Positions 5,592-11,845 of a stretch of 13,212 bases of DNA are shown piece after piece (position 1 is the stretch's first letter; each line of letters starts with the position of its first letter). This DNA is from a virus. The position numbers and the translations under genes were made by a program. The DNA is taken from UHGV virus genome UHGV-0125291, one strand, 5' to 3'. The notes beneath the pieces are model-generated. The model was not told the origin of the DNA. It ran no database searches and saw only the letters and a program-made list of their open reading frames with translations.

Positions 5592-5626
5592 GGGGAGTAT
5601 ATTAGCCATTTGGAACCCCACGGTCT

Positions 5627-5654
5627 CTTGCGGGTTTAATTAAGAACCCGCAAG
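5627..5654. other. perfect 10-bp stem-loop (CTTGCGGGTT-8 nt-AACCCGCAAG), not a canonical terminator
   Basis: Located 17 nt from the hsdR stop. The A-run is 3' on the plus strand and the U-run is 5' on the minus strand, so neither orientation gives hairpin plus U-tract. Confidence 0.4.
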
Positions 5655-5670
5655 AAAAACACGAATTGGG

Positions 5671-8908: not shown

Positions 8909-10147
8909 TTAATTACTGACAGTTTCAGGTTTCGGGAAACTGAACAGTAAATCACGGTAGTATTCGTATTGTTTCTGGCGCAACTCGATTTCACGCGGAA
9001 GACCTTCGGTGATGGAGTTTGTCAGGGTATCGAATTTGTTGAGTATTTCGACAATGCGAGCTTGCAAGGTGAGTGGCGGTACAGGGATTGGGTATTTCAT
9101 TATATCCTCTTTACTGCCACGCGGCATTTTTGCTCCTTTAGCATGCTGCATGTTGTATTCAAAGAATTTGTCATCTGCCAAAATCTGATATAGATATCTG
9201 GTATTTATTGAGCTATCTATGCAACGAATAACCAATACATCGCCATTTGTTCCACCGATACAATCTGCTTGCCAAATTTTTTTCAAATATGGGCGGATAT
9301 TCCCAATCAGTATATCGTTAGGTATAAACTCCGTTAATTTACCTGATGTCGGTACATGATTAGATAATGATTTTCCTGCTCTGTTTTGCAGCAGATTATC
9401 TACGCCAACATAATTCCTTTCATCAAGTAGTTCGAAACTAATTCTTGTTTTCGAGTATTGAGCCACTTCTCCCAAAGTCTTCCACTCAACCTCACCCTCT
9501 TTAAAACTCAACAACTGGTCGCGATAGTAGTTGTACTGTTTTTTACGCATGTTAAGCTCAGCGGTAAGCTCAGCGGTAAGCTCAGCGGTAAGTGCAGTAA
9601 ATTTATCCAGAATCCGAACGATTTCAGACTGGATGGCAAGAGACTTTTCTGGATTGTTTGAACAGGGAATTGGAATTTTAATTTTAGATAAATCGCCACT
9701 GGAAACCCGTCGGACTTTAGCTCCAGTAATATATTTCATTTTTTGTGTTTGAAATATTTCGGACTGGAAGAAATAGGCGAGATATGTAACATTTTGCTCG
9801 TGGCGAAATAACATCATATCTCCGGAAATAGCAACGTTATCGCCAAGCCAGGCTAAAGGTTTTACTACATCTTCATCGTTTTCTGATGTTGTTGCTAGCA
9901 ATAAGTCATTTTTTTGAGCCTTTCTCAGCTTATTGGCTAGTTCTGGAAGCACGTAAGTAAATGTTTTATCAGCTGATAACCCATACCTTGTATAAATCTG
10001 ACCGTAATGTATTGCTGGAAAACCACTTTCAACGAAATCTTTTTTCTGTAGTCCATTGCCACGTATGAAATCGCCAAGCTCTCCCAGTGACAACCATTCA
10101 ACATCAACTCCATCCAGCAATTTGTTCAGAAAGTTCAACCCACTCAT
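8909..10147 (-). CDS. hsdS: Type I R-M specificity subunit (HsdS), Type IC family
   Basis: It has the conserved central region ([29 protein letters not shown]...[17 protein letters not shown]) and C-terminal region ([23 protein letters not shown]) typical of EcoR124/EcoDXXI-type HsdS, with two variable target-recognition domains. The start overlaps the hsdM stop by 4 nt. Confidence 0.93.
9553..9588 (-). repeat. three perfect tandem copies of a 12-bp unit encoding (LTAE)x3 in the HsdS central conserved region
   Basis: Plus strand TAAGCTCAGCGG x3 (9553-9564, 9565-9576, 9577-9588), read directly from the sequence. It is in frame on the minus strand as CTT ACC GCT GAG. Confidence 0.9.
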
Positions 10148-11706
10148 GATTGCGCCTCGTCACCTTCAATCTTTGCCACAATTGCATCAATATCTTTACG
10201 CAACTGGTCGATTTTGCTGACCGTGGTTTTCAGCTCAGCATTCAGCTCACCGATATCGATAATTTCGCGGTTATCTTTCGCTTCCACATAGCTGCTCACC
10301 GACAGGTTATAGTCATTCGCGACAACAGTCTCAAACGTGACAGATTTTGCCAGATGAGCAACATCTTCCTTGCTGGCAAATACCTGCATAATCTGTTCGA
10401 TATGGGCATCGGTCAGGATATTGTTGTTGGTCTCTTTTTTGAACAGTTCGCTGGCGTCAATAAACTGAACGTTGGTATCCGTTTTATGTTTAGACAGAAC
10501 CAGAATGTTTACGGCAATGGTGGTGCCAAAGAACAGGTTCGGTGCCAGTGAAATCACGGTTTCGACATAGTTATTGTCGACCAGATACTGACGGATTTTC
10601 TGCTCCGCGCCGCCACGGTAAAAAATACCCGGGAAGCAGACAATCGCAGCACGACCTTTGGCCGAAAGATAGTTCAGCGCATGTAATACAAACGCAAAGT
10701 CAGCTTTGGATTTGGGGGCCAGAACGCCAGCCGGGGCAAAACGCTCATCGTTAATCAGCGTCGGGTCATCGCTGCCAATCCATTTCACCGAATACGGCGG
10801 GTTAGAAACGATGGCATCAAACGGTTTTTCATCTCTGAAGTGCGGCTCAGTCAGCGTATTGCCCAGCTTGATATCAAACTTGTCGTAGTTGATGTTGTGC
10901 AAAAACATGTTCATACGCGCCAGGTTATAGGTCGTATGGTTGATTTCCTGACCAAAAAAACCTTCTTCGATGATATGGTTATCAAACTGTTTTTTCGCCT
11001 GCAACAACAGTGAGCCGGAACCCGCTGCCGGGTCGTAGATTTTGTTAACGCTGGTCTGCCCGTGCATAGCCAGTTGTGCAATCAGCTTGGAGACGTGCTG
11101 CGGTGTAAAGAACTCGCCGCCTGACTTACCAGCATTCGCCGCATAGTTAGAAATCAGGAACTCATAGGCATCACCGAACAGGTCAATCTGATGTTCGTTG
11201 AAGTCACCAAGTTTTAACCCTTCAACCCCTTTCAGAACCGCAGCCAGGCGGGCATTTTTATCTTTAACGGTGTTACCCAGGCGGTTACTGGTGGTATCGA
11301 AATCAGCAAACAAACCTTTGATGTCAGCTTCTGAAGGGTAACCGTAAGCAGAACTTTCGATAGCAACGAAGATGCTGTTTAAATCTGCATTCAGTCTGTC
11401 ATTGGTATTTGCTTTCGCAGCTACGTTGCAGAAAAGCTGACTGGGGTAGATGAAGTAGCCTTTAGTTTTGATGGCATCGTCTTTAATGTCATCAGTAATT
11501 ACGCTGTCATCCAGTTTCGCATAACAGATACTGTCATCACCGGCTTCAATATAACTGGAAAAATTTTCGCTGATAAAACGGTAGAAAAGCGCGCCCAGAA
11601 CGTATTGCTTAAAATCCCATCCATCGACCGAACCCCTGACATCGTTAGCAATTTGCCAGATTTGACGATGAAGCTCTGCACGTTGTTGAATACTTGTCAT
11701 TTTCAT
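10144..11706 (-). CDS. hsdM: Type I R-M DNA methyltransferase subunit (HsdM), N6-adenine
   Basis: 520 aa. The AdoMet motif ([10 protein letters not shown]) and the catalytic NPPY motif (SNPPYS) are present. A second Met 2 codons in (ATG 11698-11700) is an alternative start. Confidence 0.95.
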
Positions 11707-11845
11707 CCACTTATTTCAGGCTTATGTAATTGGCGGTGATTCTACAGCAACTTGGATGCTTTAGCAGTTCGGACATTAGGCTACGAATGACCTGCCTAGA
11801 GGTTTGTTAAGCCGCAAAGTGCTGGTGCTTTATGCCTGTGAAGTT

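Follow-up and report, generated by a model that had tools for sequence, protein, structure and literature searches.

A type IC hsd cassette in the pap-phd slot of a P1-like element

The window studied here is a 13,212-nt stretch of the UHGV virus genome UHGV-0125291, in which the type I restriction-modification (R-M) genes hsdM, hsdS and hsdR lie between genes of phage P1 type, next to phd-doc. The locus raises the question of whether this R-M system is complete and how it came to occupy a place that holds other cargo in P1 and its relatives. A first-pass annotation, made from the letters alone, had described a complete type IC R-M locus carried as a cargo island in a phage backbone. We consider it very probable, at roughly 85%, that positions 5596 to 11806 are a complete EcoR124-family cassette sitting in the pap-phd slot of a phage-plasmid of P1 type (Punavirus) or of a remnant of one carried on a plasmid, where it replaces the P1 genes from pmgT to humD.

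The hsd genes and their place in the P1-like backbone

Three intact open reading frames (ORFs) were present in the ORF list of the window on the minus strand, in the order hsdM-hsdS-hsdR. These ORFs and the spacer that sets hsdR apart are as follows.

10144 to 11706, minus strand: hsdM, 520 aa, the N6-methyladenine (m6A) methyltransferase subunit, with the Pfam domains N6_Mtase (E=4e-121) and HsdM_N.
8909 to 10147, minus strand: hsdS, 412 aa, with two Pfam Methylase_S domains and an alignment to 7bst_A.
8788 to 8908, minus strand: the hsdS-hsdR spacer, 121 bp, with a promoter-like site at 8881 to 8852 (TTAACA-18-TATTTT) that is a consensus match only.
5671 to 8787, minus strand: hsdR, 1038 aa, the type IC motor and nuclease subunit, with the Pfam domains HSDR_N, SWI2_SNF2/ResIII, T1R_D3 and EcoR124_C.

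HsdR residues 1-1038 aligned with the EcoR124 HsdR structure 2w00 (2w00_A) at 2281 bits, and HsdM residues 1-519 with the EcoR124 HsdM structure 7bst_D at 1148 bits. Because both subunits align over their full length with EcoR124 chains, the hsd locus is, by sequence, a complete and intact type IC system of the EcoR124 family. EcoR124_C, a family-specific domain, was found in HsdR at E=7e-72, and PADLOC gave the three genes the labels MTase_I, Specificity_I and REase_I. The other sequence hallmarks of type IC were also found, namely the gene order with hsdR set apart, the relatedness of HsdR and HsdM, and the TAEL repeats and conserved regions of HsdS. HsdM contained motif I (DPAAGSG) at 225 and NPPY at 302. 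HsdR contained D151, E165 and K167, its nuclease residues by the numbering of EcoR124I, together with Q179, Y183, the Walker A motif GSGKT at 310-314 and DECH at 408. The QxxxY residues Q179 and Y183 have been probed by mutagenesis in EcoR124I (PMC2475608). The hsdM and hsdS genes overlap by 4 nt (ATGA), and the promoter-like site in the spacer is a candidate for a separate hsdR promoter.

We then aligned the window with P1 (NC_005856) and with P1-like elements. Positions 1-5595 matched P1 78888-84482 at 98.2% identity and 11807-13159 matched P1 87970-89322 at 98.5%, both collinearly; that is, P1 matches end at 5595 and restart at 11807, and the island is 5596-11806. The parts of the window that define its boundaries are listed below.

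1 to 5595, plus strand: P1-like left flank, from pmgM' through pmgS (3565 to 4827) to pap (4900 to 5406).
5596 to 5670, minus strand: non-coding left end of the island, 75 bp, with a hairpin at 5624 to 5657 that has a 13-bp stem and no U-tract.
11707 to 11796, minus strand: hsd-specific DNA upstream of hsdM, the presumed hsdM-hsdS promoter region, which travels with the cassette.
11797 to 11806, plus strand: possible scar of about 10 bp, TAGAGGTTTG, resembling the 5' end of a small ORF that precedes hot in relatives without hsd.
11807 to 13158, plus strand: P1-like right flank, 98.5% identical to P1, from the humD stop relic to truncated pdcB.
11808 to 11810, plus strand: TAA, left over from the humD stop codon, just beyond the right junction 11806|11807.
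13159 to 13212, strand not assigned: terminal part of an IS1 that cuts off pdcB and lies outside the island, with 98-100% matches to IS1 in many records.

At the left junction, 5595|5596, P1 continues with the start of pmgT, and the P1 segment replaced by the island amounts to 3.5 kb, from pmgT to humD. Both junctions coincide with gene borders, as in phage mosaicism. Collinear P1 genes of high identity thus stand on either side of hsd (pmgM to pap on the left, phd-doc-pdcA-pdcB' on the right), and every large ORF in the flanks has plus-strand orientation. P1, P7, RCS47, SJ46, D6 and others have other cargo in this slot, so that hsd is not collinear in all relatives.

Island, flanks and replaced P1 segment had GC contents of 43.8%, 48.4% and 46.5%, respectively, and the difference between island and flanks was significant in non-overlapping 500-bp windows (Mann-Whitney p=1.8e-4). 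The two junction regions had direct or inverted repeats of at most 6 nt in common (mean of shuffled sequences, 7.1 nt). Neither a target duplication nor terminal repeats were found at the island, and no ORF for a transposase, integrase or recombinase was found inside 5596-11806; the features of an autonomous mobile element are thus lacking. These results agree with most of what the first-pass annotation had proposed. The completeness of the locus, borne out by the intact ORFs, Pfam, PADLOC and the EcoR124 alignments, held, as did its opposite orientation to the flanking genes, the P1-like character of the flanks and the lack of a transposase or terminal repeats; the higher AT content noted by eye proved real though modest. 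Two points were refined. The island does lie within the proposed span of 5592-11845, with true limits at 5596 and 11806, and the slot upstream of phd was rightly recognised, while its extent in P1 is pmgT to humD rather than hot-lxr-humD.

Spread of the junctions and the probable history of the cassette

We assessed how widely the junctions occur. Among PLSDB plasmids, the hsd-type left junction was present in 262 records at a coverage of at least 80%, and the P1-type (pmgT) left junction in 261. A comparably sized class carries hsd with only 84 bp of the P1 flank left (from window position 5512). One member of it, pM216_mF (IncF), was examined, and there IS1 sits at this cut, immediately left of hsdR. 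On the right side, 715 of the 1,264 PLSDB records with the phd flank had the hsd|phd junction and roughly 500 had humD|phd. At least 80% of the whole window was found in 150 of 5,426 complete E. coli genomes (about 2.8%). In the phage collection, about 20 P1-like records have this flank and two of them bear hsd, phi456 and vB_EcoM-673R5, both with identical junctions. A full phage-plasmid of P1 type with hsd in the slot is the 92.6-kb pHNTH9F11-2, in the order ban, baseplate and pmg genes, pap, hsdRSM, phd-doc, pdcAB, lpa, pacAB, c1, cre and ref. Outside this setting, about 300 plasmids of Klebsiella fall within the 80-90% match band, and the non-P1 Klebsiella phage vB_KpnS_p4727 (PQ492289) carries hsd at 4119-10052, 82.7% identical over window 5679-11700 and without P1-derived flanks.

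The junction is invariant in hundreds of replicons, the hallmarks of transposition are missing, and right-flank single-nucleotide polymorphisms (SNPs) at 11813 and 12406-12424 place the window with hsd-bearing elements, apart from P1, P7 and RCS47. From these three observations, we infer that the junction was formed once, in an ancestor, and then spread by homologous recombination. That is, a cassette without mobility machinery would move between P1-like elements and IncF-type plasmids by recombination in its P1-derived flanks, and neighbouring IS1 copies would help it spread by trimming, and perhaps mobilising, larger blocks.

How the hsd|phd junction itself formed may be read from its right end. 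The hsd-specific DNA at 11707-11796 is common to the hsd-bearing plasmids L010 and L011 (pHH12_P1) and absent from P1. About 63 PLSDB plasmids (e.g., pCFSAN061772_01 and pHH12_P1) have the same DNA upstream of hsdM joined to the small ORF, hot, humD and phd, and the homology of relatives without hsd to this arrangement begins at the start of the small ORF. In an alignment of the window with L010, L011 and L012, the counterparts of the scar were L010 10713-10721, L011 about 9072-9080 and L012 7001-7009. Because of the approximately 10-bp scar and the 63 or so plasmids with hsd-hot-humD-phd, a two-step origin is suggested, as a lead rather than as proof: the cassette would have been set upstream of hot-humD, and a deletion of about 1 kb including hot-humD would then have created the hsd|phd junction. 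The left end differs among contexts as well. pHH12_P1 is without 5596-5670, and because its homology begins exactly at the hsdR stop, at 5671, the core module would run from 5671 to about 11796, with 5596-5670 belonging to the version found next to pap. In the same plasmid (CP058914, 10115-13406), hsd-hot-humD is followed by apbC and metG, normally chromosomal housekeeping genes, which may reflect gene capture or an artefact of assembly.

Several observations weigh against this history of a functional cassette entering the slot. No SNPs in the left flank separate hsd carriers from non-carriers; 5557, 5571 and 5576 are private to the window against every comparator, as are the differences in the last 100 bp of that flank generally. 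The scar match is short, at 8-9 of 11 positions, and the direction, hsd in and pmgT-humD out, is drawn from composition, orientation and this short scar. A promoter scan of the minus strand at 11707-11806 gave nothing above threshold, and the total for the hsdM-phd region equalled the shuffle expectation. Moreover, both isolated phages that bear the cassette have it disrupted: phi456 in hsdS, by a 1,195-bp IS5-family element at phi456 12722-13916 (window 9929-9932) that is 96.5% identical to a copy of ISKpn26 and is bounded by the duplication CTTA, and 673R5 in hsdR and hsdM, both annotated as fragments. Because of this disruption in both isolates, selection for R-M activity in free phages is not evident. 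The transposase of the phi456 element is annotated as 'putative baseplate hub protein'.

We weighed three other accounts of the locus. The polarity might be reversed, with hsd ancestral in the pap-phd slot and the pmgT-humD segment of P1 and the cargo of P7 and RCS47 as later replacements. The hsd|phd junction is indeed the commoner one in PLSDB, and a strong terminator-like hairpin on the minus strand of the shared flank (5477-5455) suits hsdR, while the P1 genes there are all on the plus strand. However, many of the 715 plasmids are of IncF type and not P1-like, and hsd is present in only the two phage-collection records mentioned above. The lower GC content and opposite orientation of the cassette also speak against an ancestral hsd, as do the humD stop codon and the 10 bp or so of the pre-hot ORF left at the junction and the existence of the hsd-hot-humD-phd form; we therefore regard this reversal as unlikely. 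Arrival by transposition or site-specific integration, with a recombinase of its own or a borrowed one, is the least probable account in our judgement and would be surprising. IS1 is nearby, at 13159 in the window and left of hsdR in pM216_mF, and in pEC21Z063-100K two IS1 copies bracket pmgQ'-pap-hsd-phd-doc-pdcB', a block of the kind that could transpose or form cointegrates. Nevertheless, these IS1 copies lie outside the island junctions, the junctions fall at gene borders, and the repeat and ORF searches described above found neither the ends nor the enzyme that such an event calls for.

The third account concerns the host element rather than the cassette. The window may derive from a larger hybrid plasmid that contains a degenerate P1 remnant, and not from a viable phage, in which case 'phage backbone' would overstate the matter. 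The closest plasmid matches to the island, pL37-2 (IncFIB/IncHI1B, 145 kb) and pEC21Z063-100K (IncFIB), are hybrids with P1 remnants. They share the IS1 truncation of pdcB seen at 13159. In both, c1 comes immediately after this IS1, with lpa-pacA-pacB gone, and the block is bordered by non-phage genes. The same truncation is, on the other hand, present in phi456, which is recorded as a phage on E. coli MC1061 and is the best phage match to the window. Complete P1-like phage-plasmids of 90-100 kb with hsd in the slot exist, and the 5.6-kb left flank of the window is uninterrupted. A remnant is thus a substantial possibility, to which we give somewhat less than even odds, and a 13-kb window alone cannot show whether its backbone is that of a viable phage. 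The placement of a complete hsd cassette in the pap-phd slot, which we prefer, covers both kinds of host element.

We also considered an artificial or error-ridden sequence, since no collection holds a match of at least 99%, and rejected it: of the 41 SNPs private to the window, most are synonymous, and they cluster in the manner of a natural mosaic. In the ppp phosphatase gene, 14 window-private SNPs lie within 200 bp (2013-2212), 12 of them synonymous; this cluster indicates a small mosaic tract that came from an unsampled relative.

Junction sequences and predicted activity

The right flank continues from the humD relic with the following features.

11823 to 11828 and 11846 to 11851, plus strand: the -35 and the -10 (TATAAT) of Pphd, mapped from the P1 annotation.
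11883 to 12104, plus strand: phd, with a GTG start and Pfam PhdYeFM (PF02604).
12104 to 12484, plus strand: doc, overlapping phd, with Pfam Fic/DOC (PF02661).
12468 to 12668, plus strand: pdcA, in the P1-like right flank.
12696 to 13158, plus strand: truncated pdcB, cut by IS1 at 13159.

Gene order, overlap, Pphd and the 98.5% identity to P1 together identify phd-doc as the type II toxin-antitoxin system that is the addiction module of P1; as a neighbour of hsd, it would stabilise carriage. The phd start is GTG at 11883, and it is ATG in eight of eight relatives (P1, P7, RCS47, phi456, 673R5 and three plasmids); the GTG may reduce translation of the antitoxin.

The distance from the hsdM ATG (11706) to the Pphd -10 (11846) is 140 bp, just as the first-pass annotation had stated in proposing a compact divergent control region. 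The spacing thus stood, and the shared control did not. Pphd and the Phd/Doc operator palindromes lie entirely within the P1-derived flank and likewise follow the humD stop in P1, and hsdM is accompanied by approximately 90-100 bp of its own upstream DNA, in other contexts as well. Judged from these sequences, the hsdM and phd promoters are two independent units set back to back, with no sign of shared control.

On the left side, the flank next to the island contains four features of its own.

5406 to 5422, plus strand: OpmgT, an operator of the C1 repressor (formerly Op88), mapped from the P1 annotation; sequence ATTGCTCTAATAAATCA.
After OpmgT, to about 5450, plus strand: the PpmgT promoters of the P1 annotation, now aimed at the 3' end of hsdR.
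5455 to 5477, minus strand: a terminator-like hairpin with a T-run, in P1-derived flank downstream of hsdR, from a consensus scan and a fold.
5505 to 5591, plus strand: a 28-codon hydrophobic ORF, MNTAFKIIMTAIYFWLFFITFGSIVAHG, downstream of PpmgT and ending 4 nt before the left junction.

The minus-strand hairpin at 5477-5455 is strong and could terminate hsdR transcripts. The hairpin at 5624-5657 was also considered for this role and set aside, since it has no U-tract in either orientation and 5477-5455 is the better candidate. The 28-codon ORF is intact in P1, P7, RCS47, phi456, 673R5 and several plasmids, is unannotated in the P1 RefSeq record, and is retained except for its first codons in pM216_mF, where the P1 flank is trimmed to 84 bp. 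A consensus scan found no plus-strand terminator-like site between PpmgT and the 3' end of hsdR. PpmgT, which is repressed by C1, might drive antisense transcription of hsdR upon prophage induction and so lower restriction, a speculative idea to which we give little weight. If it were true, the element would have a type I switch coupled to lysogeny, with restriction on in lysogens and relieved in lytic growth. Equally conjectural is the separate proposal that the scar and the hsd-hot-humD-phd forms document a stepwise assembly of the widespread hsd-phd-doc block in P1-like phages, followed by export to IncF plasmids.

We next examined the specificity subunit. In the alignment to 7bst_A, the N-terminal, central and C-terminal conserved regions of HsdS were the same as those of EcoR124 HsdS, and both target-recognition domains (TRDs) were unlike those of EcoR124; therefore, the half-sites, and hence the specificity, would differ. 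The GC content was 38.5% for TRD1, 37.8% for TRD2 and 39.6% for the whole of hsdS, the two TRDs having the lowest values. The central region contains one further feature.

9553 to 9592, minus strand: the TAEL tandem repeat, a perfect 12-bp unit in 3.3 copies (TRF), encoding three TAEL units (aa 187-198) and determining spacer length.

Two TAEL repeats in EcoR124I and three in EcoR124II correspond to N6 and N7 spacers, the change arising by unequal crossing-over, and three repeats are also present in EcoDXXI and EcoprrI (PMC3874165). Because the window HsdS has three repeats, it is predicted to be an N7 form with a 7-nt spacer. Relatives with the same two TRDs (98-99% identical) mostly have 408 aa and two TAEL repeats, and one has 404 aa and a single repeat; further relatives retain TRD2 with a different TRD1. 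The two classical ways in which type IC specificity changes are thus both visible around this hsdS allele. A search of the HsdS relatives for a named specificity gave generic names only.

The near-identity to EcoR124 argues that the system would function as an R-M system. A complex of two HsdM and one HsdS (HsdM2-HsdS1) would methylate adenines in a bipartite target fixed by the two HsdS recognition domains, and with two HsdR subunits added it would become a translocase-nuclease, driven by ATP, that cleaves incoming DNA when this is unmethylated. In this way, the prophage or plasmid would defend itself and its host against other phages and plasmids. An Rfam scan of the whole window returned no family at threshold.

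Meaning and comparison with known systems

The locus is a textbook illustration of how defence systems occupy variable slots of temperate phage-plasmids and spread by recombination through conserved flanks, and the hsd-phd-doc block links P1-like prophages with IncF plasmids. Such elements would give their carrier strains a type I barrier, the specificity of which TAEL changes would shift between N6 and N7. This matters for phage therapy, as well as for the transformation of, and conjugation into, clinical and animal E. coli.

The arrangement itself can be read from existing annotation. Features in the GenBank record of P1 describe 84263-84482 as 96% identical to DNA downstream of EcoDXXI hsd. 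For 84399-84482 the record gives 98% identity to R124/3 DNA on the downstream side of hsdR, and for 87969-88647 it gives 98% identity to DNA upstream of EcoDXXI hsd; these features coincide with the junction coordinates of the window. A 1997 study by Tyndall et al. (Mol Microbiol 23:729) reportedly described type IC hsd loci flanked by P1 DNA. It is cited for the linkage of R-M systems to mobile elements (PMC12707154), and four further papers cite it as well. In a comparison of 54 P1-like phage-plasmids, pmgT-humD is variable region 8 among eight highly variable regions (PMC9603915). Our literature search for P1-like elements with type I R-M systems found no dedicated paper. The arrangement has been known since 1997, and the window is a new copy of it, real but ordinary. 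What it adds is small: the TAEL variation, with one or two repeats, in relatives sharing its TRDs, and a right-junction scar with intermediates, which suggests a two-step origin.

We compared the window with its nearest systems. EcoR124I and EcoR124II, of plasmids R124 and R124/3, share with it the hsdM-hsdS-hsdR order, near-identical HsdR and HsdM, and the conserved regions of HsdS. EcoR124II has three TAEL repeats, as the window HsdS does, and R124/3 has short P1-derived DNA downstream of hsdR according to the P1 record, as at the window locus; EcoR124 differs from the window in both TRDs. EcoDXXI and EcoprrI are likewise type IC hsd loci between P1 DNA to the right of pap/Op88 and P1 phd-doc. 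In the window, however, the P1 homology is longer: to the left it covers 5.6 kb of morphogenesis genes, and to the right it reaches through pdcB'. Because this homology extends much further than at EcoDXXI and EcoprrI, the host element is itself P1-like and not a conjugative plasmid or chromosome; the window is also without the anticodon nuclease gene prrC.

P7, RCS47 and JL22 have the same pap-phd slot, with contents varying among otherwise 98%-identical elements. Their cargo consists of plus-strand genes of phage type, usually with hot and humD, whereas that of the window is a minus-strand defence cassette throughout. A further likeness is to phi456 (OR339795), vB_EcoM-673R5 (ON470615) and pHNTH9F11-2, P1-like genomes in which the hsd cassette has the same two junctions as in the window. 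Over 98% of the window, phi456 shows 98.7% identity, and its pdcB has the same IS1 truncation. Nevertheless, hsdS is broken by the IS5-family element in phi456 and hsdR and hsdM are annotated in pieces in 673R5, whereas all three genes are intact in the window, and pHNTH9F11-2 carries an hsdS allele different from that of the window.

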